Shown: in pieces, positions 6,449-35,389 of the stretch
Layout: each line of letters opens with the position of its first letter
Position numbering within the stretch: position 1 is the first letter of the stretch
Assembly (NCBI GenBank): GCA_016699795.1
Contig: CP065011.1
Span: 155,131 to 219,130, forward strand
Length of the DNA stretch: 64,000 bases
Reading direction: 5' to 3'
Source of the DNA: Candidatus Moraniibacteriota bacterium
GTDB lineage: Bacteria > Patescibacteriota > Minisyncoccia > Moranbacterales > GCA-2747515
Program-made: the position numbers and the translations under genes
Notes under the pieces: generated by a model
Told to the model about the DNA's origin: nothing
Seen by the model: only the letters and a program-made list of their open reading frames with translations
Databases searched by the model: none

Positions 6449-6632
6449 ATATATTTACATTATTTAAAATACCTATTTATAGGATTGTTATCAATCTTCA
6501 TTTTCCATTGCAATTTCCAAATTTTCACTGCAAATTCGATGAAAATTTAAAAATTTCATTTACAAAAAGAAATTAGCAACAATTCCTTTATACCATAAAT
6601 TAAAAAAGGAATCTCATTGTATAAAGATTCCT

Positions 6633-7196: not shown

Positions 7197-7280
7197 TTTA
7201 GCACCTCCTTTTTTTGAATAAGAACTTGCTCTATAATAACAGAAATCAAAGAAAAAGTCAAGAAAAAAAAGTATTCGTCA

Positions 7281-7321
7281 AGGCTCTAGACTAGAAGAAT
7301 TTTTTCTAATAGCCTAGAGCT
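7281..7321. terminator. long-loop inverted repeat (GGCTCTAG ... CTAGAGC) downstream of the DUF62-1 gene; possible terminator
   Basis: 8-bp inverted repeat with a U-rich loop, just past the stop of the 7361..8128 gene. Confidence 0.3.
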
Positions 7322-7360
7322 ATATTTAATTAAGATTTGATAAATTTAGCAAAAGACTTA

Positions 7361-8128
7361 TTAATAATCTATAGTAGTCCAAGTGACTCTGTCACCAATT
7401 TTAATATAGAATTCTTTGTACCCCTCAGAGTACCGGACGGTACCCAATTCAGGTAAAGAATGGATGGAACTGCCCGCATAAAGGACCCAGTCTTTGTCGT
7501 CTTGTGTCATCATTCTGTTTGAGAATTTTGCTTCAAACTTCTCTTCGCTATTGATGAATATTTTAAATCTCTGACCTTCTTTAAATCTTGGTGTTTCACC
7601 CATCATCTTGAGAAGGCCAAAATTATCAATATGGACAATTGTTCCTGTGCTGATATCAAGGCTGATTAATTGCTCAGCATCAAATGGTTTACCGAAGCTA
7701 TTTAATGGTTCTCCTGCAACTAATTTCGCAACATTTGGTGCATGTACATATTTACCACCGAAAGAGACAAAACCTGGGTCATGTACTTCATACAATGTTT
7801 TGTATCCAAAATCTTTTAATACCCAACTTAATGCACCCGTGTTAGCGCTAAAAAACTTAATTCCATTATTAAGTTCTCCATATATTCGCGCTGAGCGATG
7901 TTTTTGAGGGTTAATTACCACTGAAAAAACAGTGTCTTCGAAGTAGTAATCAGCCATAAGCCTTGTCAAAAAAGCAGCATTTATAAGTGAGAATTCTGCA
8001 ACACACACAAGTTCAACCTCGACATCTTTAACTCCAAGTTTAAAACATTCGTTTAAAACAATTCGACGCATTTCATTAAAAGCAACATCTTTGCAGTCGG
8101 TGATAATTACTACATTTTTCTTATTCAT
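7361..8128 (-). CDS. DUF62 / SAM hydroxide adenosyltransferase-fluorinase-chlorinase family protein (paralog 1)
   Basis: 255 aa; N-terminal VVIITDCKDVAF (the TDFG-like nucleotide-pocket region) and HIDNFGLLK (IDxFGN motif) characteristic of PF01887 (5'-deoxyadenosyl transferase family: FlA, SalL, SAM hydrolase). About 50% identical to the ORF at 22883..23653. Confidence 0.7.
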   Translation of the reverse strand: MNKKNVVIITDCKDVAFNEMRRIVLNECFKLGVKDVEVELVCVAEFSLINAAFLTRLMADYYFEDTVFSVVINPQKHRSARIYGELNNGIKFFSANTGALSWVLKDFGYKTLYEVHDPGFVSFGGKYVHAPNVAKLVAGEPLNSFGKPFDAEQLISLDISTGTIVHIDNFGLLKMMGETPRFKEGQRFKIFINSEEKFEAKFSNRMMTQDDKDWVLYAGSSIHSLPELGTVRYSEGYKEFYIKIGDRVTWTTIDY

Positions 8129-8139
8129 ATACAGTTATA

Positions 8140-8805
8140 TTAAAAATCTCGTGAAATAAAATCATATCTTATCTGCTTATTCCTGTCTCTGAAATATATA
8201 TCCATATTAATCACTCCGGATTCATCAGTAAGATAGAAATCAAGAATAATGTACTCCCCAAGTGCTGGAGCCATATAGGACGAAAACGTCTTAATTCCAA
8301 ATATATCATCAATAATATGCATCATTATCTCAAAGTGTGACACTGCCAATACTTGTCTGAAAGATTCACCCGCAGTAATTCTGCGCAAAACAAGATCTGA
8401 AATGAATTTATAAAAGCGTAGACGCCTATTTGCGTGAGTCTCGACAATGTGCGAGCTTTTATGATATAGCTCACGATTCTCGTAATGCTCCCTCGCCACA
8501 TCGTCAAGTGTAAGTCCAAGATCCTTTTCACGAGTCAAAAAGGTCTGTAGATCTGCATAGTCACTTGAGCGAATCTCTTGTACCTCAAAATACTCATCGC
8601 TAGGCAAACCGGCACCTTTAACGATAAATTCAAGCGTGCCTCGCGCCCGCGCCTTAGGGGAATGCAATAGGTCAACTCTTGATTTTGCGTCAATAATACC
8701 CTGTTCAACCAAATCTTCACCAAGATGAATTGCTCGCTCAACACCCTCGGGTGTCAAATCGTGTCCTATGTCTTTGTAATACGGTGCCTCGTGTCTTATG
8801 AGCAC
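8140..8805 (-). CDS. histidine phosphatase (phosphoglycerate mutase-like) family protein
   Basis: 221 aa; LIRHEAP (RHG-like) and HSPKARARGTLEF (SPxxRAxxT) motifs. Locally GC-richer codons (cgcccgcgcc etc.) than neighbours. Confidence 0.6.
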   Translation of the reverse strand: MLIRHEAPYYKDIGHDLTPEGVERAIHLGEDLVEQGIIDAKSRVDLLHSPKARARGTLEFIVKGAGLPSDEYFEVQEIRSSDYADLQTFLTREKDLGLTLDDVAREHYENRELYHKSSHIVETHANRRLRFYKFISDLVLRRITAGESFRQVLAVSHFEIMMHIIDDIFGIKTFSSYMAPALGEYIILDFYLTDESGVINMDIYFRDRNKQIRYDFISRDF

Positions 8806-8825
8806 TAATCAAAATAGTTTATTAC

Positions 8826-9437
8826 TCATATATCAGATTTTATTTGCTCAAACAACTCCCAAAACGTACTCTGATTAAAATGCTCACGCTCGGCAATAAC
8901 TGATATTTTTGAATTAGGCAATTTTTGATGTAGGTATATTGCATTTCTTTCCGTGCACACTGGGTCGTTGTCCGAATACCAAACAAAAATATTTTTACAT
9001 TTGTCCGCAATAGTATGAACTGCGGAATAATCAAATGTAAATGTTCCGGTACTCTCGTTAAAATCTTTTGGTTGAAAATCGTCAGACACAAATGGGGCAA
9101 TGAGGTGTAAATTTTGTATTACGATTTCGTTCTCAACTAGATACTTAAGAATAAAGGTAGTACCTAGAGAGTGGGCCACAATATCAATGTTTCTATTTTT
9201 ATATTTTTCTATATATTTTTCAAACACGATTTTCCAAATAGAGTACTGTGCATGATCAACACCAGGCATTTTAACCTTCGCCACGTCAAAGACATTTTCA
9301 AATGACCAAAGTAACCAATCCATCCAGTATTTATCTGTATGCACATACTCTATATCAAAACTTTGATAATATTTTTGCATTTGCAAATCATCGCAAAATG
9401 AATTTCCACCACTGATACCAAGTAATACTTTTTTCAT
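8826..9437 (-). CDS. alpha/beta serine hydrolase, YdeN/RBBP9-like
   Basis: 203 aa; GxSxG nucleophile elbow (VAHSLGT); overall YdeN-like size and layout. Confidence 0.55.
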   Translation of the reverse strand: MKKVLLGISGGNSFCDDLQMQKYYQSFDIEYVHTDKYWMDWLLWSFENVFDVAKVKMPGVDHAQYSIWKIVFEKYIEKYKNRNIDIVAHSLGTTFILKYLVENEIVIQNLHLIAPFVSDDFQPKDFNESTGTFTFDYSAVHTIADKCKNIFVWYSDNDPVCTERNAIYLHQKLPNSKISVIAEREHFNQSTFWELFEQIKSDI

Positions 9438-10437: not shown

Positions 10438-11358
10438 TTATTCTTCATTTTTTTCTCCCGAAGGAAAATCTCCTCTTTTTTTACAAAGGCCATATCCAAT
10501 CATGCTGTAGCATAACTGAGCTGCGACATATTCAGTTCGGACATCATCTTCAAAAGGAGCTATCTCTACAATATCAGCCGATACAACTTCTTTTTTCAGA
10601 AATAAATGTTTTAAAAATTGAGAACAAAATTCCCATGTTAATCCCCCAGGAACGGGAGTTCCTGTGGCTGGCGCAACCGCCGGATCTAATCCATCAATAT
10701 CTAATGTGAGATACACTTTTTCTGTAGGGATAGCATTTACAATATCTTCAACGGAATAATTCATTCCTGTCCCCCACTCAAAAATCAAAGATTTAGATTC
10801 TCTTGCAAAAAGTATTTCGCTCTTTGCATACGTTCGGATCCCTATTTGCACGGTTGGAAAACCCAATTCCACACCCCTTCTCATAACACAAGCGTGTGAA
10901 AATCTCCCAGGATTTACCTCATTAAAAGAAGAATCATCATCATACATATCCAAATGTGCATCGATTTGAACCAAAGATATTTCATTACTTTCTTTGAAAA
11001 AATCAGCTAGCCCTTGGAAAACTCCTATAGAAATAGAATGTTCCCCTCCCAATGTAATGATAAACTTTCCAGAGGAGAAGTGATGAAGCCATCGCTCACG
11101 AACAGTCTGGATCATTTTTTCAGGAAGTTCCGAATGAATAGAAAGAAGAGAATCATCATGAAAAATCGAAAATTCTTTGGCTGTTTCCAGAAGAAGAAAA
11201 CGATCAAATAATTCCACTTTTTCTTCTAAGCAATGAACGATTTTCATGGGTCCTTTATCTTGTCCTTTTCGAAAAGAAGAAGAATAGTCATAAGGAACAC
11301 TTAAAACAACAGCATCACAAGATTTTTCATCAATGACATCCAAAATAGATTCTACCAT
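10438..11358 (-). CDS. speB: agmatinase/arginase-family ureohydrolase
   Basis: 306 aa; Mn-binding motifs GGEHSIS, DAHLDMYDD, LTLDIDGLDP, TPVPGGLT. Confidence 0.8.
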   Translation of the reverse strand: MVESILDVIDEKSCDAVVLSVPYDYSSSFRKGQDKGPMKIVHCLEEKVELFDRFLLLETAKEFSIFHDDSLLSIHSELPEKMIQTVRERWLHHFSSGKFIITLGGEHSISIGVFQGLADFFKESNEISLVQIDAHLDMYDDDSSFNEVNPGRFSHACVMRRGVELGFPTVQIGIRTYAKSEILFARESKSLIFEWGTGMNYSVEDIVNAIPTEKVYLTLDIDGLDPAVAPATGTPVPGGLTWEFCSQFLKHLFLKKEVVSADIVEIAPFEDDVRTEYVAAQLCYSMIGYGLCKKRGDFPSGEKNEE

Positions 11359-11368
11359 AAAAAATCAT

Positions 11369-12424
11369 TTACTCTTTGTCATTATTTATAAATATTTTTC
11401 CCAATTCTTTCTTCTCTCTTTTTTTCCAATCTCCCTGATGATACACATAACTTATCATAAGAGGAAGAACGGATGTTGCTTCAGCATACACCATTTGTGT
11501 ATTTTCAATGGTAACCTTCCCCCACGAATGAGCTTCTTTTAGCGTCGAGCTTGAACAAGCTCCATCTCGAACATCCGCAACTGTTATCTGCACTGCGTAT
11601 TTATGCATCGGGGTATTTTTTTTACCCAACATTTCAGCACACACAACAGTGTCTTGAGTGAAATTTTTGGGAACACCGCCTCCTATCATAAAAACACCTG
11701 TTTGTTTTGCCTGCATTTTTATCTCGGTAAGTTCTCTAAAATCAGCAACGGAATCGATTGAAATATGAATATTTGGCTTTTCAACTTGATTCATAACTAA
11801 GCCAAAACCAGCACTACTGTCGGAAAAAGCAGGGCAAAATATCGGCACATTATTTTCATAAGCAACCTGAACTAAAGAATCTTTTTTCTTGGCCTTCTTA
11901 GGATTTTCAGAGAGAAACTTTCCCATATGATAAATAAATTCTCTCGAAGAATAAGGTCGAGGCTCAAGAGAATCCGCTATTTCTTTGATAGCGTTGTCGC
12001 ACATTTGTAGTTCATTTTCATTTATATACGTATCATATATTCTATCGATATAAAGCGATCGTAATTTGCGGTCATCTGAATCTACTGATCCCTGATAATG
12101 CTTTGCGCCAAGAGCTTCGAAAAAATCCATATCTACTATCGTTGCTCCTGTTGCAACAACAACATCGATCATGTTTGTCTTTATCATGTCTACATAGATT
12201 TGCATACATCCAGCAGCACTTGTACTTCCTGCTATAGTAAGGATATTCACACATTTTTTTTCTTTTATCATGGCAGATAATATATCCGTAGCATGAGCAA
12301 CTTCTCTTGCCGAAAAAGACATTCCTCGCATGGAATCAATAATGTATTGTGAATCAAACTTCTTAATATCGATATGCTGAACAACGTTTGAAAGTAATTC
12401 TTTCTTTTCCTGTGATTTCTTCAT
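11369..12424 (-). CDS. deoxyhypusine synthase-like protein (bacterial DHS homologues are often homospermidine synthases)
   Basis: 351 aa; DHS family features IFCPAFSDSSAGFG, MIGGGVPKNF (cf. GGGxxKH), NAD-binding Gly-rich region TIAGSTSAAG. Confidence 0.75.
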   Translation of the reverse strand: MKKSQEKKELLSNVVQHIDIKKFDSQYIIDSMRGMSFSAREVAHATDILSAMIKEKKCVNILTIAGSTSAAGCMQIYVDMIKTNMIDVVVATGATIVDMDFFEALGAKHYQGSVDSDDRKLRSLYIDRIYDTYINENELQMCDNAIKEIADSLEPRPYSSREFIYHMGKFLSENPKKAKKKDSLVQVAYENNVPIFCPAFSDSSAGFGLVMNQVEKPNIHISIDSVADFRELTEIKMQAKQTGVFMIGGGVPKNFTQDTVVCAEMLGKKNTPMHKYAVQITVADVRDGACSSSTLKEAHSWGKVTIENTQMVYAEATSVLPLMISYVYHQGDWKKREKKELGKIFINNDKE

Positions 12425-12433
12425 ATTTTTGAT

Positions 12434-12871
12434 CTATAATAAATTTTGACTTGGGTATCGAGTTCCTCTTTTAACAAAATTAATTTCCGTTTCTTTCAAT
12501 TGAAATATTTCAGTAATGTGAGAGATGATCAGGTCTGTTTCCATATCATTTTTGCAAGTATAGACATCCGCACTCAAAAATCCTCTTCCAGGAAATGTGT
12601 GTATACTTATATGACTTTCTTCGATCAAAACATATCCACTCCAACCTCCAGGATCCTTTGTATCATTTCCCTTTGCAAAAAAAACTTTCGTCTCCGTAAG
12701 TTTGTGCATTTCACATTTAACCACCAGATCATCTAGACATTTACGAACAGATTCTTCATCGTTTAATTTCTCAAAATTCCCACCATAACCGTCAATCATA
12801 AGATGCTCTCCGAAGTTTATTGTTTCCATATATTTTTCTAAATTATTAATAATTAACTCATCTAGGTTCAT
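12434..12871 (-). CDS. speH: S-adenosylmethionine decarboxylase proenzyme (pyruvoyl-dependent SpeH/class 1b)
   Basis: Start reassigned to the ATG at 12871 (MNLDELIINN...); the tracked ORF begins at an upstream TTG. LIEESHISIHTFPGRG carries the ESH self-cleavage serine motif. Forms an operon with the DHS-like and speB genes (9-10 nt gaps). Confidence 0.75.
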   Translation of the reverse strand: MNLDELIINNLEKYMETINFGEHLMIDGYGGNFEKLNDEESVRKCLDDLVVKCEMHKLTETKVFFAKGNDTKDPGGWSGYVLIEESHISIHTFPGRGFLSADVYTCKNDMETDLIISHITEIFQLKETEINFVKRGTRYPSQNLL

Positions 12872-12968
12872 TCCTAGGAAAATGCCCCAATAGTTTTGTG
12901 ATTTGCAGTAACGTATCAACTAAGTTATACCTCTATTGTAACACTTTTCTATATAAAGACAAAGGTGA
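12855..12968. repeat. copy 1 of a ~110-bp direct repeat (promoter + leader + first 5 codons of speH)
   Basis: About 93% identical to 23727..23838: aactcatctaggttcattcctaggaaaatgccccaatagttttgtgatttgcagtaacgtatcaactaagttatacctctattgtaacacttttctatataaagacaaaggtgaa. Confidence 0.85.
12935..12962 (-). promoter_or_regulatory. sigma70-like promoter for the speH operon inside repeat copy 1
   Basis: Minus strand reads TTGTCT-16nt-TACAAT, about 65 nt upstream of the speH ATG. Confidence 0.5.
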
Positions 12969-13196: not shown

Positions 13197-13763
13197 ATGA
13201 TAAAGAATCTTGATAAATCCATTATAATAACAGGCGCCTCGGTTAGTGGAAAAACGACGTTATGTCGTCGTCTCATGGTACATTTTAAGCTTCAGCCACT
13301 ACCTGTACACATGACCCGAGAATTGCGAAACGGCGAAATTGAAAATGTTGATTTGGTTTTTATTGTAGAAGATGAATTTAAAGCGCGTTTTCTAAATGGA
13401 GAATATTTGCAAGAGTCCCTTGAATCGGCATATTTTAGCGGAGCCTATTACGGTTGCCCCAAAGAATGGATTAACCATACTAGAAATGAAGATTATTGTT
13501 GCTTTGTATGTCCAACAGTCAAAATGGCGAAAGAGTTAAAAAAAACACTTGGACAGAAAATTTTTTGGATACATCTGACTACTAATAAAAAAGTTAGATT
13601 AGAGAGGTTAATGAAAAGAAATCCCGATATGAAAAAAGAAGATTTTGATGCAAGAATTGAAAAAGGAGATGCGATTGTTGATACAACAGGACACGATTTA
13701 ATCATAGATACCAGTTATCTTAATGCTTGGGAAATTTTTTTCAACGCATTAGCGAGACTATAA
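13197..13763 (+). CDS. guanylate kinase-like P-loop nucleotide kinase
   Basis: 188 aa; Walker A GASVSGKTTL; MTRELRNGEIENVDLVFIVEDEFKARFLNGEYLQ parallels Gmk TTRxPRxGExxGxDYxFxxxxxFxxxxxxxxFLE, with both substrate-binding Arg kept. Confidence 0.55.
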   Translation: MIKNLDKSIIITGASVSGKTTLCRRLMVHFKLQPLPVHMTRELRNGEIENVDLVFIVEDEFKARFLNGEYLQESLESAYFSGAYYGCPKEWINHTRNEDYCCFVCPTVKMAKELKKTLGQKIFWIHLTTNKKVRLERLMKRNPDMKKEDFDARIEKGDAIVDTTGHDLIIDTSYLNAWEIFFNALARL

Positions 13764-13766
13764 TAT

Positions 13767-15515
13767 ATGTGTGGAATTGTAGCCATTGCTGGAAAAATTA
13801 TAAACAAGAATCACTATGACACTGAAGCTATGCTTCAGAAATTAAAGCATCGCGGACCGGACGGGCAAGGAGAAATAACATTTCCCCATTGCTGGCTTGG
13901 ACATCGACGACTCGCTATCGTTGATTTAAAATTTGGCAATCAACCTATGGTTGATGATAAATTAGCTATAACTTTTAATGGCGAAATATACAACCATCGC
14001 GAATTACGTAATCAATTAGAAAAAGTAGGATATCATTTTCAAACTCAATCTGACACAGAGACAATTTTGAAAGCATATCGAATGTGGGGAAAAGATTGCC
14101 CAAAGTATCTAGATGGAATGTTTGCTTTCGCAATTTGGGATGATCAGCAAAACGAATTATTTATTGCCCGGGACAGATTGGGGAAAAAACCCCATTATTA
14201 TTTTTTTGATGGAGACACAACGTTTCTTGCTTCCGAAATAAAATCATTAGTTGCTTCGGGTACTTTGGTTCCGGAAATAGACTATAAGGCTATCGACAAT
14301 TTTCTAAGGGTGATGTATATTCCGCCATGGAAATCAGTATATAAAAATGTTCATCAAATTCCACCCGCACATTGTGGAGTCTACAAGGATGGGAAACTTT
14401 CACTCGACAAGTACTGGACACTTCCTTCTCGGAAAATCGATATTTCATACGAAGACGCCAAGGTTGAAGTTCGTAGACTTCTTCATGCTGCAATAAAAAA
14501 AAGAATATCCTCTTCCGATGTAGAATTAGGCTCATTTCTCTCCGGCGGACTAGATTCATCATTGGTCACGCTTATTACAGCTGGCGAGCTTAATCACCCG
14601 CTTAAAGTATTTTCTGTCAGTTATGATAATCATGATGAGCTCCCTTTTGCCAAGCAAGTATGCGAAAAAATAGGTGGTGAACATTTTACAACACGCATCG
14701 ATGGGTGCATAACGCAAGAATTGGATAAAATAATCTCCTATTTCGATGAACCGCACGCTGATACATCCGATTTTCCACAACATCTTGTTTCACAACTCGC
14801 GGCACAAAAAGTAAAAGTTGTATTATCCGGAGACGGAGCTGACGAATTATTTTTGGGATATAAGTGGCATCTCAAACATAAAAAACCCAATCAAAACCAT
14901 GGTTCATCAGATATTTTCCGTAATCGCCTTCAATCAATATGCGCATTTCCCTCTTCTGACAGATCACTACTTTGGAAATACCCGGATGCATTAAATGACG
15001 ATATTATCATAAAAGATGCTTATAAAAAAAATTTCACCTCTATTGATAATGTTACAACATTTGATTTAACCTCTCACTTGCCAGGTCAAATTCTCACAAA
15101 AGTGGATCGTGCCAGCATGATGCATGGGCTTGAAGTTCGCTCACCCTTTCTGGATATAGCGTTAATAGAATTTGTTTTTAGTCTACCTTATGAATATAAA
15201 GTTCGTAACGGTGAACAAAAATATATTCTCAAAGATATTCTTACCGAATATATGCCCATCGATTTTGTTTATCGCCGCAAACAAGGGTTTGGAGCTCCAA
15301 TAGAACGATGGTTAAATAACCCCACAATGAAAGAGTATGTATATTCGAAACTAGGTTCTGATGCAAAAATAAGATCCATTTTTTCAGAAAAAATCCTTGA
15401 TAACTATCTGCATGATTTCTATATTAATGAACATAAGCACGAGCGTTCCGCACAGCGACTTTGGGTACTTCTATCCTTAGAACGCTGGATGACACAATTA
15501 AGTTTAACCTTATGA
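13767..15515 (+). CDS. asnB: asparagine synthase (glutamine-hydrolysing) family amidotransferase
   Basis: 582 aa; N-terminal nucleophile MCGIVAIAG, HRGPD, class-II GATase domain; PP-loop SGGLDSS in the synthetase domain. Only 3 nt after the kinase stop. Confidence 0.85.
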   Translation: MCGIVAIAGKIINKNHYDTEAMLQKLKHRGPDGQGEITFPHCWLGHRRLAIVDLKFGNQPMVDDKLAITFNGEIYNHRELRNQLEKVGYHFQTQSDTETILKAYRMWGKDCPKYLDGMFAFAIWDDQQNELFIARDRLGKKPHYYFFDGDTTFLASEIKSLVASGTLVPEIDYKAIDNFLRVMYIPPWKSVYKNVHQIPPAHCGVYKDGKLSLDKYWTLPSRKIDISYEDAKVEVRRLLHAAIKKRISSSDVELGSFLSGGLDSSLVTLITAGELNHPLKVFSVSYDNHDELPFAKQVCEKIGGEHFTTRIDGCITQELDKIISYFDEPHADTSDFPQHLVSQLAAQKVKVVLSGDGADELFLGYKWHLKHKKPNQNHGSSDIFRNRLQSICAFPSSDRSLLWKYPDALNDDIIIKDAYKKNFTSIDNVTTFDLTSHLPGQILTKVDRASMMHGLEVRSPFLDIALIEFVFSLPYEYKVRNGEQKYILKDILTEYMPIDFVYRRKQGFGAPIERWLNNPTMKEYVYSKLGSDAKIRSIFSEKILDNYLHDFYINEHKHERSAQRLWVLLSLERWMTQLSLTL

Positions 15516-17203
15516 ACAATAATAAAAAATCTTCGGCTTTGCTTGATAGTCTCCATACTGACTTTAAAAAAATATATACAACTATGTCAGAAAAAAACTG
15601 GCATGAGCAAATTACTTTTTATCTAAATAAAATAGGATTTTTTTCTGGTAGCCCTGCTAAAGAAAGAATGGTTACCGGCTGGATTGCCGGGCTTTGTGAG
15701 CGTGCATACTATGTTGCGGCGCATAGAAAACCAATAAATATTCGTTCAAACTTTAGCCGTCAACTCAAAAAAATAATAAGCTCCACATCCTTACCTGAGT
15801 TTCTTAGTTGTCCCGGACAAGTCATTTGCGGTAAACGTCAACCCTCATTCATCGAAGGCATTATTCCGACACTTGAACGTCTTCAAGTCATGGAACGCTT
15901 ACCAGAAGTGTTTGGTGCCGGTATAGATTCTATTATTATCGGCGGATCAATGAGTTATATCCCCTTCTTCGGCATACGCGAAAATAAAAAAACTAAGGAT
16001 TTTTCCGATATTGATACGCTTATCGTTATTAATAATAAGTTCTTTAAAAAGGCTTCCTGGAAAAAATTTATAAATGACAAGCTATTTCCCGTTAAAGAGA
16101 AAGAAAAATTTCTTGATCGAATAAAGGTTTTCCAAAAACTCAACCGCAACAATATTGCTGACGTATTCAGCCAAAAATTTTCTATTGTTGGGAAGTCTTT
16201 TATCGTAAGCAATCACTTTGTTACTCGTTCAGTATTCGAAAAAATGGTTTATACTGACTTAAAAAAATCTCTTCAAACAAGAAAGGATATGCAGTACATT
16301 ATGCGCGATTTTCGAATAGATCCCTTTAGGCACCCTTGCCATGCGCGTCATACTTTTGACGGCCAACGTTTTGAATCAGTAATTGCTGGACAGGAATTAG
16401 AATCAGGCGGATTTATTTCTAATATGCCAGGCTATATTATTTCTAATGAAAAGCTTTATCCTGGTGTCTATCAAACTGTAATTTCTCCCGCATTTTTAGT
16501 GTTTTATGATCGCATAGGAGAAACGACAAAATTGGTTAAAGAATTTGAAAATATTATTTACAGAGAGGTTAAATATATACGAAAAAAAACACCGTCAGCA
16601 ACATATGCTAAAGCACATAACCGTTATGATATTTTCCCTCTCGGCAGATATGATGACGGGCATAATTCTTACATTTCACCAAAGGAAATTAAAAAATATA
16701 TACCACCCCCCAACTTTAATATTATTGGAATCAAATCGGTTATCTCACCAGAAGAAGTTATAGCCGATAAAATTAAAGATTCAAAAGAAAATCAGCTCGT
16801 TCGTTATAAAGCAAGACGCTTTCTAGAAAACTGGAAAAGGAAAATGTTAAGAAATGCCGAAATGGAAATTGATAAATTCATTAATCAAGAGAGCCTTAAA
16901 TCACTAATGCTATCATCTAAAGAGCAAGGAAAACAATGGGCTACAGTAGCTGCCATCCCCTACGGCAAACAGATAATCGAAAAAATTCCGCATCCATATA
17001 AAAAATCAGATTCAAAAAACTTAATTGTGCGCGAAGAATTATTTACCCAAATCATAACGCCTGGTGATATTATGCGTTTAACTACATATGAAAAATTAGC
17101 ACAAATATCTGGAAAAGTTTATGTAGCAAGTATTATGGATTCAAAAGAAAAACGCAAAAATTTACCACTAAGCTATGAAGTAGTGATACCGATACCAACA
17201 TAA
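15512..17203 (+). CDS. large nucleotidyltransferase-domain protein (GlnE/GlnD/Pol-beta-like NTase signature), function unknown
   Basis: Start reassigned to the ATG at 15512, which overlaps the asnB stop (ATGA). IIIGGSMSYIPFFGIRE...KDFSDIDTLIVINN matches the hG[GS]...[DE]h[DE]h NTase motif (cf. GlnD vGGYGRgEL..SDIDLLI). About 560 aa; the rest is unassigned. Confidence 0.5.
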   Translation: MNNNKKSSALLDSLHTDFKKIYTTMSEKNWHEQITFYLNKIGFFSGSPAKERMVTGWIAGLCERAYYVAAHRKPINIRSNFSRQLKKIISSTSLPEFLSCPGQVICGKRQPSFIEGIIPTLERLQVMERLPEVFGAGIDSIIIGGSMSYIPFFGIRENKKTKDFSDIDTLIVINNKFFKKASWKKFINDKLFPVKEKEKFLDRIKVFQKLNRNNIADVFSQKFSIVGKSFIVSNHFVTRSVFEKMVYTDLKKSLQTRKDMQYIMRDFRIDPFRHPCHARHTFDGQRFESVIAGQELESGGFISNMPGYIISNEKLYPGVYQTVISPAFLVFYDRIGETTKLVKEFENIIYREVKYIRKKTPSATYAKAHNRYDIFPLGRYDDGHNSYISPKEIKKYIPPPNFNIIGIKSVISPEEVIADKIKDSKENQLVRYKARRFLENWKRKMLRNAEMEIDKFINQESLKSLMLSSKEQGKQWATVAAIPYGKQIIEKIPHPYKKSDSKNLIVREELFTQIITPGDIMRLTTYEKLAQISGKVYVASIMDSKEKRKNLPLSYEVVIPIPT

Positions 17204-17207
17204 CATC

Positions 17208-20114
17208 CTACCGCTTAAGCGTTATTATAATTTTCTTGTCTTCAATTGAGAATTCTTTTTTGATATCATTTTCTGAAAGCAAGTTTGATTGGATATTATT
17301 TGCCAAAACTTCTTTTTGAATCATTTCTCCAAACTTATTGAAAATTTCTTCCATTCCATCATATCCGACTCGAATACGATTATCAACTTCATATCCCGCT
17401 TCTTTGCGCATTTCTTGAATAACTCTAATTATCTCGCGAGCATTGCCTTCCATTTTCAACTCCTCAGTAATTTCAATATTTAGTTCAACCTTATTTTCTG
17501 GTCCACTTTTAATAACAACATTTTTGACATTAACCTCTTCTTTCATAATTTCTATAAAATCTTCCTGCATTTCATAGTTCGTAATTATCAATTCGGAAAG
17601 TGGTTGTCGGACCTTGATTCCATTTTTTGCACGCAATTGCAAAGCCTCCGTAATGATTTTTCTGGTATTATCCATTTTTTCATTTAACTCCGCGTCAATC
17701 AATTTTTCATCAGCCACAGGGAAGTCAACCAAATGTACAGATTCTTCATTTGCTAAGTTCTTATAAATTTCTTCTGCAATAAATGGAGTAAATGGTGACA
17801 TAACCTTTGATAATTCCACCAAAACATAGTGCAATGTTTGGTAAGCAGCTTCTTTATCACCATCATCCTCAGATTTCCAAAATCTCTTTCGGCTGCGGCG
17901 AATATACCAGTTAGATAATTCATCAATAAAATCCATGACTGGTTTCGTAGCATTTGGCAAATCATAAGCCAACATGTTTTCGTCAGCTGTTTTAATAAGT
18001 TTATGCAACTTTGATACAATCCATTTATCCAGCAAGCTTATTGTTTGAGGTCTCTCGCCTAAATTTTGAGGAGACCATTTATCTACATTGGCGTACATGA
18101 CGAAAAAACCATAACTGTTCCACAAGGTGCCCAATTTTCTTTGAATATCAGAAACATCCTTATCAATTAAGGCAAAATCGTCACCATTGAGCAGTGGTGA
18201 ACTTATCAAGAGGTATCTCAAGGCATCGGCACTATATTTCTCAAGCAAAACATTCGGATCCGTATAATTACCTAAAGATTTTGACATCTTTTTACCATCC
18301 GAACCCGCAATCGTACCAGTTACAATGACATTTTTAAAAGATTCCTTTCCAAAAAGACCCACTGATACGGCATGTAGGTAATAGAACCACGCACGAACTT
18401 GACCAACATATTCAGAAATAAAATCTCCCGGAAAATTTTCTTCAAACTTCTCCCTATTCTCAAACGGATAATGAAATTGAGCAAATGGCATTGACCCCGA
18501 TTCAAACCAGCAGTCCATAACTTTTTCAATTCTTCTCATCCCAATACCATCTATTTCAAAAGTTATTTTGTCGACATAAGGCAAATGGTAATCTCCAAGT
18601 TCTACGCCCGAAAGTTCCTTTAATTCTGCATAACTACCCACGACTTTTGTTACTACTGTTCCGTCAGATTGTGTTCCGCGCCAAACCGGAATAGGCGTAG
18701 CCCAAAATCGATCACGACTTAAGTTCCAATCGGGAGCAGTTTCCACAGTATTCCTAAACCGCTTTTCCTTAAAATGATCCGGGAACCAGTTGATATTCTC
18801 ATTTTCTTCCAACATCTCTTTTCTTTGCCCGTCAATATCCATAAACCAGCTTGGATGAGCTCGGTACATCAACTTCGTACCACACCTATGGCAATGTGGG
18901 TATTCATGCTGGACATAGTCAATTTTTAATACAACATCATCCACCAAAAAAGTTTTGGCTATTTCTTTATTTACTTCCCAAACATTTTTATCCTTCCATC
19001 TTCCATCGACATAGATTCCGTTTTCATCAACCGTATTTACGACTGGCAGTTTCTCTTTTTTAGCAACCACATAGTCATCTTCTCCGAAAGCCGGAGCGAT
19101 ATGCACAATACCTGTTCCATCTTCTGTTGTCACAAAATCCGCACCAATGATTCTGTGCGCTTTATCCCCATGATTTTTAAAAAGAGGCTTATACTTTTTA
19201 TTGACTAATTCCGCACCACTAATTTCTCCGACTATCTTCGGTGGAGTAGGCGGAACATCCAAGGAATTCAATTCTTTAACGGCAACAAATAAAACTTCCT
19301 TCTTATTTTCATAAGTTTCTTTTGCTAAAATAAAAATTTCTTCCTCCCCTTTTTTGTTATTATATCTAACTTTTACATAGTCAATTTTTTCACCTATTGC
19401 TAAGGCTACATTGGCCGATAATGTCCAAGGTGTCGTTGTCCAGGCTAATAAATATGTATTTTCTTCGCCTTCAAGTTGAAATTTCACATAAACCGATGGA
19501 TCAGTTACCACCTTATAGCTATTATCCATAGCTACTTCAGCTTTTGAAATCGGAGTCGCACACCGCGTGCAATACATTAGAACCTTTTCACCTTCATATA
19601 TTTTTCCTTTTTCATACAATTGCTTAAATGCCCACCAAACACTTTCCATGTATTCTTTATCCATGGTCTTGTATGCATTTTTAAATTCTACCCAGCGGCC
19701 GATTCTCTCAATTGTATCTTCCCAAACACTACCACCTTGAACCATTTCTCTATGACAAGTTTGAATATATTTTTCTAATCCAATTTTTGGAATGTCACGT
19801 TTATCTTTAATGCCTAGTTTTTTTTCTACCAAATTTTCCGCAGGTAGACCATGACAATCCCAACCCCAACGCCTTTCTACTCGCTTACCTTTCATAGTCC
19901 AGTACCGTGGCACTACATCTTTCACGATCGAAGAAAGTAATGTCCCATAATGAGGAATTCCTGTTATGAAAGGAGGTCCGTCATAGAAAACATACGCATC
20001 TTTTTTATCTCTCATCTCCACAGACTTTTTAAAAGTATCATTTTCCTTCCAAAACTTAATCATCTCCTGTTCCATTTCTGAATATTTTTTTCTTAATTCT
20101 ACCTTTTTAAACAT
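17208..20114 (-). CDS. ileS: isoleucyl-tRNA synthetase, eukaryote-like type 2
   Basis: 968 aa; YDGPPFITGIPHYGTLL (type-2 HYGH-class HIGH region); GWDCHGLP; KMSKS (KKMSKSLGN); CP1 editing domain present. Confidence 0.9.
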   Translation of the reverse strand: MFKKVELRKKYSEMEQEMIKFWKENDTFKKSVEMRDKKDAYVFYDGPPFITGIPHYGTLLSSIVKDVVPRYWTMKGKRVERRWGWDCHGLPAENLVEKKLGIKDKRDIPKIGLEKYIQTCHREMVQGGSVWEDTIERIGRWVEFKNAYKTMDKEYMESVWWAFKQLYEKGKIYEGEKVLMYCTRCATPISKAEVAMDNSYKVVTDPSVYVKFQLEGEENTYLLAWTTTPWTLSANVALAIGEKIDYVKVRYNNKKGEEEIFILAKETYENKKEVLFVAVKELNSLDVPPTPPKIVGEISGAELVNKKYKPLFKNHGDKAHRIIGADFVTTEDGTGIVHIAPAFGEDDYVVAKKEKLPVVNTVDENGIYVDGRWKDKNVWEVNKEIAKTFLVDDVVLKIDYVQHEYPHCHRCGTKLMYRAHPSWFMDIDGQRKEMLEENENINWFPDHFKEKRFRNTVETAPDWNLSRDRFWATPIPVWRGTQSDGTVVTKVVGSYAELKELSGVELGDYHLPYVDKITFEIDGIGMRRIEKVMDCWFESGSMPFAQFHYPFENREKFEENFPGDFISEYVGQVRAWFYYLHAVSVGLFGKESFKNVIVTGTIAGSDGKKMSKSLGNYTDPNVLLEKYSADALRYLLISSPLLNGDDFALIDKDVSDIQRKLGTLWNSYGFFVMYANVDKWSPQNLGERPQTISLLDKWIVSKLHKLIKTADENMLAYDLPNATKPVMDFIDELSNWYIRRSRKRFWKSEDDGDKEAAYQTLHYVLVELSKVMSPFTPFIAEEIYKNLANEESVHLVDFPVADEKLIDAELNEKMDNTRKIITEALQLRAKNGIKVRQPLSELIITNYEMQEDFIEIMKEEVNVKNVVIKSGPENKVELNIEITEELKMEGNAREIIRVIQEMRKEAGYEVDNRIRVGYDGMEEIFNKFGEMIQKEVLANNIQSNLLSENDIKKEFSIEDKKIIITLKR

Positions 20115-20379
20115 AAAATTATCATTTTATAATATTTAACTAACATAAAAATAAAAATCCCTACACAAATAATGTATAAGGACGATTGAAAATCGTGGTA
20201 CCACCTTAATTCCCCCAATATTTATATGGAGCTTGATTATGGCTATTACGGGCCACCCGGTGGATTCTACTTGCCTAATAGGCTTTCTTTTCACAGCATT
20301 GGGATTGATAGTCCCTCAAGCGCTTTATATATATAATACTTCTTTTTAAATATTAGGCAAATTACCAATCTTCTTAACT

Positions 20380-20815
20380 ATTTTATCAAGACTCTCAAAT
20401 AATGATTTCCTTTGACGGATCTACCGTTAAATCTGGATGTTTTGGAATTTCGTAATGCATATCCTTACCAATTTTTTCACTTCGTATATAAATCCAAAAG
20501 AGATTAATCAGTTTTGTAATCATATCCCGTATTGATTAAAAAGGTGCTATAACAGGAACGACCCTATTAAAACCTTGGCTATTAAGAACTTTTGTCAATC
20601 GCGCAACTCGCATATTGTGTTCCTTTCTATCTTCATTGCTAAATCCTAGATCTATTTAAATTGATACACGCGATTCATCTCCATCAAGAACTACAGCACT
20701 TAGTCGATCCTTTAGCAAATATGCGAGCAAGGTCTTACCTGAATTAACATTCCCAGTTTACTATATAATTCTTTTTTTGCTGTCTCATATCTTGGTTACT
20801 GAGATTTCTTCAATT
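20380..20815 (-). pseudogene. cysC: adenylylsulfate (APS) kinase pseudogene
   Basis: Minus-strand frame: AGGAGG-6nt-ATG MEKQIEEISVTKI*DSKKRII**TGNVNSGKTLLAYLLKDRLSAVVLDGDESRVSI*IDLGFSNEDRKEHNMRVARLTKVLN, then a frameshift and ..SQGFNRVVPVIAPF*. This matches CysC (..TGLSGSGKSTLA..[34 protein letters not shown]..FISP) but carries in-frame TGA, TAG and TAA codons plus at least one frameshift. Confidence 0.6.
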
Positions 20816-21137
20816 TGCTTTTCCATTCTAATCCTCCTGATTCCCCAGCCAGCATCACGACTATAAAAAACTTCTTTATATCAGGAATAGCTACTAAACA
20901 TTTTCATCACCCTCATACTCCTTTCTAATCCTCGCCATTCATTCTTCAACCAGATAAAGATAGATAAAATCTTAGAGTATCTCTAGCAGCGATGACGACG
21001 CTGCCACATTCATTTAGAACAACATTAATGGGAGCATTATGACCTCTGTGAAACGGTTGCTAACGACCTATACATAATGATTTACTCATGCATTTATGAA
21101 TACGCTGAATTCATCCTTAATTAATTTAACGGTTTTA

Positions 21138-21905
21138 TCAGTACTTTAAAATCTGATTTATCTTATTCGCTTTAGTTTTTGAGTTTATTTCATCCAAGAA
21201 AAGAGTAAATGATTCTCTTCGTGGAAGTAACCCTATCTCTCCCCTTTCTATTCCACGAGAATGACCAGGCAAATCAATATCACCTGTCACATTTTTAAAA
21301 TCAGCGTAATTCAGGAAAAGATCGCTATAATTGATTCCAATGTGACCACAAATTTTTTTCATTTCTTGAATGGGATTATTACAGAAATTTTCATACTTAA
21401 ATATCATCACTTCCTTTCCTACTAAGCTTGTTGTTAGCTCATATAAAAAATCAAGATTTTTATCATAAAATGTTCTTGGAGAAGCATTAAGAGAAAGCCA
21501 AACATCAATAGCGTTTCTAACAAAAGCAATCGGTATAACCGGAAAAAATTTGAATAGCGCATCAAGCGTAGCCAATGATTTAGATGGTTTAAAATTATTA
21601 TATCGGGATGGTACGAAACTTCCGAATGTCCAATCGCGAACTACTAGAGTTAAATTTTTAGAAATACAATATTCATATATTTCAGTTATGTTTTCAATAA
21701 ATCCTTCCGACTTCAATTCCAAACCGTACCATTCTTTAGATTGCTCTTTAATCGTGCTACAAGAACTAGGGCACAAAGCTTCAATACTTACCTCAGATAA
21801 AACAAAAGTATTGGGAATACTAGCAATGCATCTATTAAGCAAAGTCCCTCCGGACCGTGCATAAGCCATCATCACCACAATCGGTTTAGAATATTTATTT
21901 ATCAT
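21138..21905 (-). CDS. PAPS-dependent sulfotransferase family protein
   Basis: 255 aa; 5'-PSB-like motif ARSGGTLL near the N-terminus and 3'-PB-like RNAIDVWLS (RxxxDxxxS). Confidence 0.6.
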   Translation of the reverse strand: MINKYSKPIVVMMAYARSGGTLLNRCIASIPNTFVLSEVSIEALCPSSCSTIKEQSKEWYGLELKSEGFIENITEIYEYCISKNLTLVVRDWTFGSFVPSRYNNFKPSKSLATLDALFKFFPVIPIAFVRNAIDVWLSLNASPRTFYDKNLDFLYELTTSLVGKEVMIFKYENFCNNPIQEMKKICGHIGINYSDLFLNYADFKNVTGDIDLPGHSRGIERGEIGLLPRRESFTLFLDEINSKTKANKINQILKY

Positions 21906-21916
21906 CGTTTCTTTCG

Positions 21917-22876
21917 TTAGTTTTTAACTAAAGCTTCATCATATTTCTTTGATATAATTTCAACTTGTTTCTTCAAGTCTGTTATCGTTCCCTTCGCGGG
22001 AGATAATGAATAGGATGGCGTGAAAATATAATTATTATTATTGCCACCAACCCAGTATCTTCCATCCAGTAATATTTGTTCAGAAGTATTTGTCAAATTA
22101 TTTTTAAAAGTTTCGTCTACGGGAGCAATCCTAAAAAAGAAATCTTTATCCAAATCATAAATAATCCCATATCTATTTTTTATTTTTGTCTCATCATAAG
22201 CAATTTTATTTAATTTAATCCAATCGGCTAATATTTTTTTGATTAATTCAACACTAACATGAGGAGAATCATCAAGCCTCAATTCTTCTATTAGCTTTAA
22301 ATTTATCTTATTTTTATAGCAAAAATCAAATAAGCTAGGTAATGACGATATATTTATTTCAGTTACCGGAGTATTGAACTCTATTCTGCCCCCCCTTGAT
22401 TTGATGAATAATGCTGAATCCAAAGTATTTTTTAGACCATCTTTATCAAATCTCGCTCTTGTCGTTTTTTCATATATGTCCTTATCTAAAGATGGCAAAT
22501 GTATATGAACATCAGATAATCCATTTTTCAATAAATCATCAGCTAACTCAAGAGTCATTCTGGAACCATTAGTAGTCATCCCAACATCTTTCACATACTG
22601 ATTCAATATGCTAAATATTTCCACCAGGTCTTTTCTTAACGTTGGTTCACCACCCGTTATCTGGATGTGAAGATTTTTCTCATTAATAATATTTTTTAGT
22701 TCACTAACAAATTCCCGGACTTGCTCTAATGGAATAAATCCATATCCTCGCGTATACTTTCCATCTACGAATGGTCCGCAATATATACAATTTTGATTAC
22801 ATGCTCCCGTTACCGATAATCTTATTTCATAAAATGGCATAGAAACATGAAAATCTTTTGTATTCTCTAATAGCAT
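21917..22876 (-). CDS. radical SAM protein, MoaA/viperin-like class, lacking the MoaA C-terminal auxiliary-cluster cysteines
   Basis: 319 aa; IRLSVTGACNQNCIYCGP (CxxxCxxC); ITGGEPTLRKDL; MTTNGS. MoaA-like TIM-barrel region present; no C-terminal CxxC...C motif. Confidence 0.8.
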   Translation of the reverse strand: MLLENTKDFHVSMPFYEIRLSVTGACNQNCIYCGPFVDGKYTRGYGFIPLEQVREFVSELKNIINEKNLHIQITGGEPTLRKDLVEIFSILNQYVKDVGMTTNGSRMTLELADDLLKNGLSDVHIHLPSLDKDIYEKTTRARFDKDGLKNTLDSALFIKSRGGRIEFNTPVTEINISSLPSLFDFCYKNKINLKLIEELRLDDSPHVSVELIKKILADWIKLNKIAYDETKIKNRYGIIYDLDKDFFFRIAPVDETFKNNLTNTSEQILLDGRYWVGGNNNNYIFTPSYSLSPAKGTITDLKKQVEIISKKYDEALVKN

Positions 22877-22882
22877 AAATAT

Positions 22883-23653
22883 TTATATTTTTTCCCAAGT
22901 TATTACATCTCCGACTCGAATGTTAAGTTCTCTTGCACTATCCGTGCATCTGACTTTTCCTAGTTCAGGTAACCCCATGGAACTTCCGGGATAAAGTACC
23001 CAAGTTCCGGTATCATGATCCATCATTCGCGCTGAAGTTATGACCTCAATAGATTCATTTCCATTTACAAATATCCTCACTTTTGTTCCTTCTGGATAAT
23101 CAGGGAATTGATCTTTTATTTTCATTAACCCAAAATTATCAATATGAACGACGACACCTTTTTTAACAGAAAAGTCGCACAATTCGTCTTTACTTAGTTC
23201 CTTTCCATATTCTTCAAATGAAATCCTTGATGCTATTTTGGCAACCATTGGAGAATGAACATACTTGCCTCCGAACGGATAAAATTTACTTTCTTTTATT
23301 TCATATAGAGATTTTATACCAAAATCATCAAATAACCAATTCAATGTTCCAGTATCCGCACCTTCAAAATATATACCATTCGCAAGTTCGCCAAAAATTC
23401 TTTTTGGTCTCTGTTGGGATGGGTTAAGAATTAACATAAAAATAACGTCCTCCTTATAATGTTCTGCCATCAGTCGTGTAAGAAATGCTCCATTCGTTAT
23501 GGAAAATTCCTCGGCGGGAATAAGAGGCTCAATCTCTGTATAGCTATTGCCCAACTTTTCACACTCAGATAATATTTGTCTTCTAATTTCACAAAATGCA
23601 ACATCTTTGCAATCTGTAATGACTACAACATGTTTAACTGGTTTTTTCTTGTT
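22883..23653 (-). CDS. DUF62 / SAM hydroxide adenosyltransferase-fluorinase-chlorinase family protein (paralog 2)
   Basis: Likely start is the GTG at 23653 (VNKKKPVKHVVVITDCKDVAF aligns with the paralog-1 N-terminus MNKKNVVIITDCKDVAF); the tracked ORF starts 54 nt upstream. HIDNFGLMK motif present. 6-nt gap to the radical SAM gene. Confidence 0.7.
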   Translation of the reverse strand, partial: NKKKPVKHVVVITDCKDVAFCEIRRQILSECEKLGNSYTEIEPLIPAEEFSITNGAFLTRLMAEHYKEDVIFMLILNPSQQRPKRIFGELANGIYFEGADTGTLNWLFDDFGIKSLYEIKESKFYPFGGKYVHSPMVAKIASRISFEEYGKELSKDELCDFSVKKGVVVHIDNFGLMKIKDQFPDYPEGTKVRIFVNGNESIEVITSARMMDHDTGTWVLYPGSSMGLPELGKVRCTDSARELNIRVGDVITWEKI

Positions 23654-23726
23654 CACACTTAATGTTAAAATTAGGTAATTAAAGCACGCTAAGAATATTA
23701 GTATCACGCAATCTGGCTATTATATA

Positions 23727-23838
23727 ACTCATCTAGGGTTATTCCTAGGAAAATGCCCCAATAGTTTTGTGATTTACAGTAACGTATTAACTAAGTTATA
23801 CCTCTATTGTAATACTTTTCTATAAAAGACAAAAGTGA
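23727..23838. repeat. copy 2 of the ~110-bp direct repeat, immediately upstream of the DUF62-2 operon
   Basis: aactcatctagggttattcctaggaaaatgccccaatagttttgtgatttacagtaacgtattaactaagttatacctctattgtaatacttttctataaaagacaaaagtgaa. The speH ATG is degenerate here (ATA); promoter-like TTGTCT-15nt-TACAAT retained on the minus strand. Confidence 0.85.
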
Positions 23839-23903
23839 AAAATCCACAAAAAAGACCGATTTTCTTCAATCGGTCTCAAGAAAATCTAATTTCTCGTCTA
23901 GAG

Positions 23904-35263: not shown

Positions 35264-35316
35264 AAGTCTTTTCTCTCTATAAAAACAAAAAACTCCCCTT
35301 TCTTCTATCATTTTTG

Positions 35317-35389
35317 AGCCACCTGTCGGACTCGGACCGACGACCCACGGTTTACAAAACCGTTGCTCTACCAACTGAGCTAAGGTGGC
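35317..35389 (-). tRNA. tRNA-Thr (anticodon UGU)
   Basis: Minus strand: GCCACCT TA GCTC AGTTGGT AGAGC A ACGGT TTTGTAA ACCGT GGGTC GTCGG TCCGAGT CCGAC AGGTGGC T. Confidence 0.8.

Follow-up and report, generated by a model that had tools for sequence, protein, structure and literature searches.

We analysed a window of 64 kb from a 1.19-Mb contig (CP065011.1) of a metagenome-assembled genome (MAG) of Candidatus Moraniibacteriota, a lineage of the Candidate Phyla Radiation (CPR/Patescibacteria). Three adjacent minus-strand genes in this window, encoding a DUF62-like protein, a MoaA-like radical S-adenosylmethionine (SAM) enzyme and a sulfotransferase-fold protein, are half of a six-gene cluster that was split by a rearrangement around the isoleucyl-tRNA synthetase gene ileS, because the other three genes, the first three in the order found in related genomes, lie intact at 13197-17203 on the plus strand. 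The comparison points to three previously unrecognised protein families in the cluster, namely a DUF62 clade without the catalytic triad, a MoaA-like radical SAM family with a single iron-sulfur cluster and a 563-aa family with a nucleotidyltransferase (NTase) fold, whose functions we infer. A fourth, a putatively dead aminoacyl-tRNA synthetase (aaRS) paralog, is present in the archaeal version. We favour, tentatively and at a confidence just short of even, the reading that the cluster is a patchily distributed CPR accessory pathway in which SAM serves as adenosyl donor and an adenosine-derived, sulfated small molecule is built and tailored. A small-molecule pathway is favoured because of the combined composition of the cluster, with a triad-less SAM fold, a radical SAM or enolase-like enzyme, a sulfotransferase with sulfate genes, a kinase, an NTase-fold protein and an amidotransferase. 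The genes and elements concerned are as follows.

13197..13763, plus strand: guanylate-kinase-like P-loop kinase, first gene of the partner block (67.9 bits against the Gmk cut-off of 160).
13767..15515, plus strand: AsnB-type glutamine-dependent amidotransferase, in a conserved position (TIGR01536, 467.8 bits against a cut-off of 267).
15512..17203, plus strand: 563-aa NTase-fold protein with no Pfam family (AlphaFold2 (AF2) model with a predicted local distance difference test score (pLDDT) of 87; GGSMSY...SDID).
17208..20114, minus strand: ileS, with type 2 (eukaryote-like) architecture (TIGR00392, 852 bits against 621).
20157..20329, minus strand: probable T-box leader of ileS (Rfam T-box, 44.5 bits, E 2.6e-8, gathering score 93).
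~20428..20835, minus strand: adenosine 5'-phosphosulfate (APS) kinase pseudogene, CysC-type (PF01583, 65 bits with stops masked).
21138..21905, minus strand: sulfotransferase-fold protein of the 3'-phosphoadenosine 5'-phosphosulfate (PAPS) type (PF13469; 5'-phosphosulfate-binding and 3'-phosphate-binding motifs).
21917..22876, minus strand: MoaA-like radical SAM enzyme (PF04055, 73 bits).
22883..23656, open frame to 23707, minus strand: DUF62-like (SAM_HAT fold) gene (Pfam SAM_HAT_N, 32.7 bits against 26.3).
23852..23877, minus strand: terminator-like hairpin upstream of the DUF62-like gene (consensus scan only).

The minus-strand genes had been described in a sequence-only reading as an operon of three co-directional genes, and all elements of that description were located, with gaps of 6 nt between the DUF62-like and radical SAM genes and 11 nt between the radical SAM and sulfotransferase genes. 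The operon is real, but it is half of a larger cluster, and the partner block at 13197-17203 had been overlooked. On the minus strand, the hairpin is followed by the DUF62-like gene, the radical SAM gene, the sulfotransferase gene, approximately 1 kb without an intact open reading frame (ORF), the T-box leader and ileS. The position of the hairpin at 23852..23877, ahead of the DUF62-like gene, suggests that the trio starts its own transcription unit. Translation of the DUF62-like gene probably begins at the GTG at 23656, for a product of 257 aa, the same length as the orthologs. The G + C content was approximately 34% throughout the window, and no compositional break was seen at the cluster region. 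Searches with profile hidden Markov models bore out the earlier family placements: SAM_HAT_N (for both DUF62-like paralogs of the window) and PF04055 matched above their cut-offs, and the sulfotransferase spanned the whole PF13469 (Sulfotransfer_3) model at 26.3 bits against 27, with PF00685 at 18.8 bits against 22.

Related loci fell into three variants. Type A, from CPR bacteria (loci L003/L004, L006, L009, L010 and L090/L091), has the order guanylate-kinase-like kinase, AsnB-type amidotransferase, 563-aa protein, DUF62-like protein, radical SAM enzyme and sulfotransferase, which is conserved across Moraniibacteria- and Falkowbacteria-type genomes. Type B, from archaea of the DPANN superphylum and from L007 (L002/L013, L005, L007, L008, L011, L012 and L014), has the order DUF62-like protein, radical SAM enzyme, alpha/beta hydrolase and a 390-aa protein. 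Type C (L088 and L089), found via homologs of the 563-aa protein, comprises a divergent enolase-like protein, the kinase, the amidotransferase, the 563-aa protein, the DUF62-like protein and the sulfotransferase, and has no radical SAM gene.

L088 5497-6645 and L089 5523-6707: enolase-like protein (eno, 231.6 bits against a cut-off of 300; N-terminal enolase domain absent).

In each of the 14 independent loci that contain the radical SAM gene, bacterial and archaeal, this gene lies directly beside the DUF62-like gene or two genes away from it, and because it recurs in all of them the linkage is taken to exceed chance; the possibility raised earlier, that orthologous loci show no conserved linkage, fails. 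No published description of the cluster, nor a paper on 8WM2 describing it, was found in a limited literature search. Several loci have features of their own. At L088, a HIT-family protein and a Zeta-toxin/AAA_33-like kinase are encoded directly downstream. At L007 (8848-10031), the aaRS-like gene is present as two overlapping ORFs (257 and 140 aa), which may reflect a frameshift or decay, and the alpha/beta hydrolase is absent. The record of L009 (CAYSKV010000010.1) is titled as an uncultured Gammaproteobacteria MAG, yet it carries a CPR type A cluster; its seven cluster and ileS proteins are 47-75% identical to those of the Moraniibacteriota window, and the contig may be mis-binned.

In characterised DUF62 proteins, which are (R)-SAM hydrolases, a strictly conserved Asp-Arg-His triad activates water (PMC10491745). 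An alignment of 12 sequences, together with HMMER comparisons with MJ1651, 22uy and 2zbu, showed that VIDPxVGxxR is changed to [IL]N[PS]... and FHGRD to FGG[KL][YH] in 10 of 10 members of the clade from types A, B and C, with Asn at the position of the triad Asp, Gly at that of the His and an ambiguous Arg position. Because two of the three triad residues are replaced, members of the clade are unlikely to be SAM hydrolases. With the NCBIfam equivalog model for (R)-SAM hydrolase, whose cut-off is 350 bits, the two paralogs of the window scored 22.6 and 18.4. The N-terminal T-D motif and the HID.FG motif are conserved, and on the strength of this retention the proteins are predicted still to bind SAM and to use a nucleophile other than triad-activated water. 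They belong to the same fold family as the (R)-SAM hydrolases MJ1651, PH0463 and StDUF62 and the halogenases FlA and SalL, and their best PDB sequence matches are MJ1651 and the (R)-SAM hydrolase 22uy. A further difference from the hydrolases is the change of FGN to FGL. The halogenases likewise lack the triad but are otherwise unlike the clade, FlA giving only a local match of 16-19 bits.

The window encodes a second member of the clade.

7361..8128, minus strand: second DUF62-like paralog (Pfam SAM_HAT_N, 32.6 bits against a cut-off of 26.3).

The earlier estimate that this paralog is about 50% identical to the first was accurate (49% over 251 aa). What had been missed is that it belongs to a distinct cluster variant: it is the ortholog of the type C DUF62-like proteins, with 85% and 63% identity at the L088/L089 loci, and is therefore not a simple local duplicate. 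Its neighbours within the minus-strand stretch 5654-9437 are genes for a histidine phosphatase (8140-8805) and for a serine hydrolase (8826-9437). The gene at 5654-6448, for a 264-aa protein that has no Pfam match, is followed by a histidine kinase gene (3943-5664), and L089 has a homolog of the 264-aa protein (13793-14515) that is correspondingly placed close to its type C cluster. The surroundings at 5654-9437 may preserve traces of type C cluster synteny.

The radical SAM family is sharply bounded: approximately 69 clusters (90% identity) scored 236-718 bits, and the next matches were true MoaA proteins at 65 bits. Its hosts are CPR bacteria (Moraniibacteria and Falkowbacteria) and DPANN archaea (Woesearchaeota and Nanoarchaeota); it was carried by six of 185,579 GTDB species representatives, and no member was found among viral contigs. 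The window protein shares the motifs LRLSVT..CN..C.YC, ITGGEP and TTNG with MoaA. In a 33-member alignment, the CxxxCxxC cysteines C26, C30 and C33 are invariant and C186 is conserved, with no other conserved cysteine, which agrees with the earlier description of a MoaA-like N-terminus without C-terminal auxiliary cysteines and, because only these residues are conserved, indicates that the auxiliary cluster is absent. The family thus differs from MoaA in lacking the C-terminal auxiliary [4Fe-4S] cysteines and the Mob_synth_C domain (PF06463), which was not found in family members and is carried by true MoaA matches, and in its occurrence in CPR and DPANN genomes, invariably beside a DUF62-like gene and not beside moa genes. 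Although the best NCBIfam matches were to MoaA, they reached 101-103 bits against cut-offs of 231-325; with scores below the cut-offs and no auxiliary cluster, a true MoaA acting in molybdenum cofactor synthesis was rejected. Viperin membership was likewise rejected, viperin_w_prok (NCBIfam) scoring 46.9 bits against a cut-off of 180. The PADLOC pVip models, from a library without a curated cut-off, matched at 57 and 51 bits.

The AF2 model of the radical SAM enzyme (pLDDT 90.6) was structurally closest to MoaA, with a template modelling (TM) score of 0.66 over the whole chain, followed by SuiB, SkfB, viperins, BlsE and AbmM. Its top solved sequence relatives were MoaA (1tv7, E 8e-14) and AbmM (8wm2). 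After MoaA, the next-best structural and sequence neighbours include viperin/pVip and the enzymes AbmM, of albomycin, and BlsE, of blasticidin S. What viperin, AbmM and BlsE have in common is hydrogen abstraction from the ribose or sugar of a nucleoside or nucleotide. The modelled fold appears closest to radical SAM enzymes that act on nucleotides or nucleosides, since its nearest neighbours are mostly of that kind. The family differs from viperin, AbmM and BlsE in a C-terminal beta-domain with invariant motifs of its own, FRIAP and DGRYWxGG.

Among the partner genes, the kinase is judged from its sequence not to be Gmk. The 563-aa family comprises 64 clusters, all unannotated, a few members of which match NTP_transf_2 weakly. 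The nucleotidyltransferase-fold core of the window protein had its best fold match in the CDP-diacylglycerol synthase Tam41, from which it differs by the lack of significant sequence similarity and by large additional N- and C-terminal domains. No structure covering the whole protein was found in the structural comparison, and its overall architecture is new. The mechanically called ORF begins at a TTG (15461), which places its first 55 nt inside the amidotransferase gene; in the NCBI annotation and in the orthologs the start is ATG 15512, and the resulting 4-nt overlap suggests that the amidotransferase and 563-aa genes are translationally coupled.

The PAPS-binding motifs of sulfotransferases are defined as xRSGxTxL for the 5'-phosphosulfate and RNxxDxxxS for the 3'-phosphate. 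ARSGGTLL and RNAIDVWLS, on which the sequence-only reading had based its assignment of a PAPS-type sulfotransferase, are represented in all orthologs examined, being kept as AR[SC]G[GIV]T and RN[AP]IDVWLS across types A and C. The L089 ortholog has an unmarked PF13469 match on record.

In L009, L010 and L090, intact genes for cysD and a cysN-cysC fusion (cysNC) directly follow the sulfotransferase gene. L090 is the closest relative with long flanks, its radical SAM enzyme being 83% identical to that of the window, and has the order sulfotransferase, cysD, SsuA-family binding protein, ATP-binding cassette (ABC) ATPase, ABC permease, cysNC, S66 peptidase, leader and ileS. The NCBIfam scores there were 436.7 for CysD (cut-off 396.6), 736.8 for CysNC (715) and 181.9 for the SsuA-family protein (163.5); a sulfonate/sulfate-type ABC transporter is thus present in one of the three cysD/cysNC loci. 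The window keeps both ends of the L090 arrangement, the sulfotransferase gene at one and the leader with ileS at the other, and approximately 6.6 kb between them is missing.

At that place lies the APS kinase pseudogene, which the sequence-only reading had already recognised downstream of the sulfotransferase gene and which matches PF01583 at 65 bits with five in-frame stops and an internal deletion. That the PAPS supply has decayed is corroborated by the relatives, which have intact cysD, cysNC and an SsuA-type transporter exactly where the remnant stands. By this comparison, the genome appears to have deleted its PAPS-supply module down to the APS kinase remnant, and the pathway here would therefore either take PAPS from elsewhere or be in early decay. 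The remnant may descend from a different, stand-alone cysC, because it shares no more than 34% identity with the kinase domain of L090. An alternative genetic code was rejected as an explanation of the stops, which include TAA and TAG, the adjacent long ORFs being normal in table 11. A decayed guanylate-kinase-like gene, as in L003, was also rejected, since that kinase is intact at 13197-13763 and the remnant matches APS_kinase. The dN/dS values against L090 were 0.147 for the sulfotransferase, 0.077 for the DUF62-like protein and 0.064 for the radical SAM enzyme, in a comparison that spans time before the deletion. The earlier proposal that the sulfotransferase may be decaying or may use PAPS from elsewhere was upheld as to the dead supply gene, but decay of the sulfotransferase itself is not visible; its dN/dS, with that time span, points to purifying selection.

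The adjacent ileS passed the TIGR00392 equivalog, matched MupA (697 bits) and MupB (688 bits), ended in PF19302 (DUF5915) and had no zinc-finger domain reported in the scan; this domain make-up is consistent with type 2, as claimed in the sequence-only reading. Its probable T-box leader, which the sequence-only reading had missed, does not reach the Rfam gathering score, owing to a very short stem I. The leader has the core GGUGGUACCACG, followed by a terminator-like hairpin at 20183-20157 (consensus terminator scan). A small hairpin presents a 7-nt loop, CUAUCAA, with the Ile codon AUC as the putative specifier codon. The leader shares 85% nucleotide identity with the L090 leader; the core, hairpin and AUC loop are invariant, and one stem has compensatory-looking changes. 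No T-box leader was detected upstream of ileS in L009 or L010.

The ileS gene is single-copy within the 64-kb window. It adjoins the cluster in five loci (the window, L003, L009, L010 and L090), the flank of L006 being cut off there, and was not found near type B or type C loci. Between the window and L090, ileS has 56% amino acid identity and saturated dS, and the cluster genes have 77-86% identity, with dS of 0.9-1.4 for the DUF62-like, radical SAM and sulfotransferase genes. The ileS product is 41-47% identical to the L003, L009 and L010 copies, and the cluster genes 49-75%. The far lower dS of the cluster suggests that it was exchanged recently between lineages, independently of ileS. Because ileS has diverged far more than the cluster genes, co-transfer is argued against, and the pattern, unlike that of a resistance gene transferred together with its cluster, matches a housekeeping ileS next to which a cluster was exchanged more recently.

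In the DPANN loci, the partners of the DUF62-like and radical SAM pair include the 390-aa protein.

L002 7686-8834, L005 7666-8859 and L008 5955-7151: 390-aa aaRS-like protein (type B loci).

This family comprises approximately 80 representatives at 50% identity, none annotated, from DPANN-type loci only. The HIGH motif is changed to LP[IL]GY, a segment that hhalign aligned with the HIGH region of a real MetRS, and inspection of the sequences showed no KMSKS. A 23-member profile searched against 1.84 billion proteins reached tRNA-synt_1, tRNA-synt_1g and Anticodon_1 proteins at E <= 1e-3. It is a truncated class I aaRS paralog and probably non-adenylating. PDB sequence-profile searches with the 390-aa and 563-aa families returned nothing meaningful, and no homology was found linking the 390-aa protein of DPANN to the 563-aa protein of CPR bacteria (hhalign E 0.27).

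In the favoured pathway, the DUF62-like enzyme would bring in a nucleophile that is not activated water to displace methionine from SAM; the product would be a 5'-substituted 5'-deoxyadenosine, or else adenosine, formed by another route. The radical SAM enzyme would abstract a ribose or side-chain hydrogen and so rearrange or dehydrate the intermediate, and the enolase-like protein may perform the equivalent of this step in the sister cluster of type C. The sulfotransferase would transfer sulfate from PAPS, the kinase would phosphorylate and the NTase-fold protein then nucleotidylate a hydroxyl or phosphate, and the AsnB-type enzyme would convert an acid group to an amide. A comparable set of functions is known from actinomycetes, in the sulfamate/sulfate nucleoside pathways of nucleocidin and ascamycin, where genes for PAPS formation, sulfotransferases and an N-donor enzyme are combined about an adenosine scaffold (PMC10946740). 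The likeness is one of parts list only: a DUF62 member is absent from those clusters, which also differ in organism, in gene order and in the NTase, kinase and AsnB partners. The ascamycin study reportedly mentions a radical SAM gene.

The proposal of a sulfated or 5'-modified nucleoside pathway, already made in the sequence-only reading, is strengthened by the partner genes and the loss of the triad, and the pathway stays a candidate. Several observations weigh against it. The Pfam score of the sulfotransferase is slightly below threshold, and no PAPS synthesis genes lie nearby in the window, L003 or L006, which would be odd if sulfation were essential. The DPANN variant is entirely without a sulfotransferase, and since the three variants share only the DUF62-like protein, their core chemistry may differ. 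The loss of the triad could instead mean a non-catalytic, SAM-binding role. An obvious exporter is absent in most loci, as are the hallmarks of classical natural-product clusters, and no cluster protein has an assigned product, substrate or activity.

Between the two cluster halves lies a polyamine operon (10438-12919, minus strand), a second SAM-consuming module within the same 20 kb. Its genes and the ordinary housekeeping RNA genes of the window are listed here.

10438-11358, minus strand: arginase/agmatinase-family gene of the polyamine operon.
11369-12424, minus strand: 1,9-bis(guanidino)-5-aza-nonane synthase (NCBIfam, 549 bits against a cut-off of 500).
12434-12919, minus strand: SAM decarboxylase of the polyamine operon.
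34471-35389, minus strand: four tRNA genes (Trp, Thr-GGU, Tyr and Thr-UGU).
54898-55262, minus strand: RNase P RNA class A (126.8 bits).

The cluster genes can be read in other ways. It is unlikely that they modify a macromolecule, such as tRNA, another RNA or an envelope component, and not a free metabolite. Many radical SAM enzymes do modify tRNA, the cluster combines an NTase-fold protein and a P-loop kinase with an adjacent ileS, and the aaRS-like protein of type B keeps weak matches to anticodon-binding domains; yet the cluster proteins showed no RNA-binding domain, glycosyltransferase or membrane anchor, we know of no PAPS-dependent RNA sulfation, and with six carriers among 185,579 species the cluster is much too uncommon to serve a core function in translation. 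We regard as decidedly unlikely the more specific idea behind the sequence-only reading, an aaRS-directed nucleoside antibiotic, a sulfamoyl or sulfated adenosine, with ileS or the dead DPANN aaRS paralog as immunity or biosynthetic partner. Such a product would be in keeping with the presence of ileS beside the cluster in five loci despite differing gene orders, and with the class I aaRS paralog of the DPANN variant, in which HIGH is degenerate. The PAPS supply, sulfotransferase and glutamine amidotransferase also recall the parts list of the sulfamate nucleosides, whose amination step is unassigned (PMC10946740). The properties of ileS argue otherwise: a probable T-box leader, conserved and with AUC as its likely specifier, and a terminator speak against immunity, the protein passes the housekeeping equivalog and is the sole IleRS encoded in the window, its divergence from L090 relative to the cluster genes (56% against 77-86% identity) opposes co-transfer as a resistance gene, and no aaRS lies near the type C loci. 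Moreover, many bacteria have a type 2 IleRS as their only copy. To the fuller claim, that CPR bacteria and DPANN archaea, as obligate symbionts of minimal genome, employ a non-hydrolytic DUF62 adenosyltransferase and the new MoaA-like radical SAM enzyme to make a sulfated or sulfamoylated adenosine analogue against the class I aaRSs of hosts or competitors and that ileS or the dead paralog serves as immunity or amino-acid-loading enzyme, we give little credence.

A role in SAM housekeeping, in which the DUF62-like protein would clear inactive (R)-SAM, keep the SAM pool fit for the radical SAM enzyme in some other way or contribute to 5'-deoxyadenosine salvage, is very unlikely. The characterised DUF62 proteins are indeed (R)-SAM hydrolases, the gene is tightly coupled to that of the radical SAM enzyme, and the SAM decarboxylase of the polyamine operon is nearby. 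Nevertheless, the hydrolase triad is not conserved anywhere in the clade, the (R)-SAM hydrolase model reaches 22.6 of the 350 bits required, type C has the same DUF62 clade without any radical SAM enzyme, and the sulfotransferase, PAPS genes, amidotransferase and NTase would be left unexplained. The SAM/5'-deoxyadenosine salvage module that had been offered as an alternative thus lost ground, because the triad is missing, an enolase-like protein replaces the radical SAM enzyme in one variant and the cluster is so rare (6/185,579). Viperin-like anti-phage defence, with a modified nucleotide as product and kinases feeding its substrate, appears highly improbable. Its attractions are the PADLOC pVip matches of the radical SAM enzyme (57 and 51 bits), a nucleotide-kinase-like gene in the cluster, a patchy distribution resembling horizontal transfer, and restriction-modification and Schlafen/AlbA genes near some loci. 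The radical SAM enzyme is nevertheless nearer MoaA than viperin (103 against 47 bits, with the fold ranking in agreement), the other cluster proteins have no PADLOC match, and at least seven biosynthetic-type genes with a sulfate-activation module are atypical of known defence systems.

The favoured reading, a pathway to an adenosine-derived, sulfated small molecule, bears on enzymology and on the biology of the carriers. To our knowledge, only three nucleophiles, water, chloride and fluoride, are established for the DUF62 fold, and a triad-less clade that stands constantly within a tailoring cluster offers an immediate lead on a fourth. The radical SAM enzymes form a new MoaA-like family without an auxiliary cluster, for which the context points to a nucleoside substrate. 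The cluster proteins are small and soluble-looking, and versions with an intact PAPS module are available in L090, L009 and L010. The window itself would capture pathway decay in progress, with the supply module deleted and a tailoring enzyme still under selection. If true, the aaRS-targeting reading would represent the first such natural product pathway outside actinomycetes together with a new DUF62 nucleophile. Organisms of the CPR and DPANN groups are considered to produce very few specialised metabolites, and a cluster shared and exchanged among them would bear on the interaction between symbiont and host.

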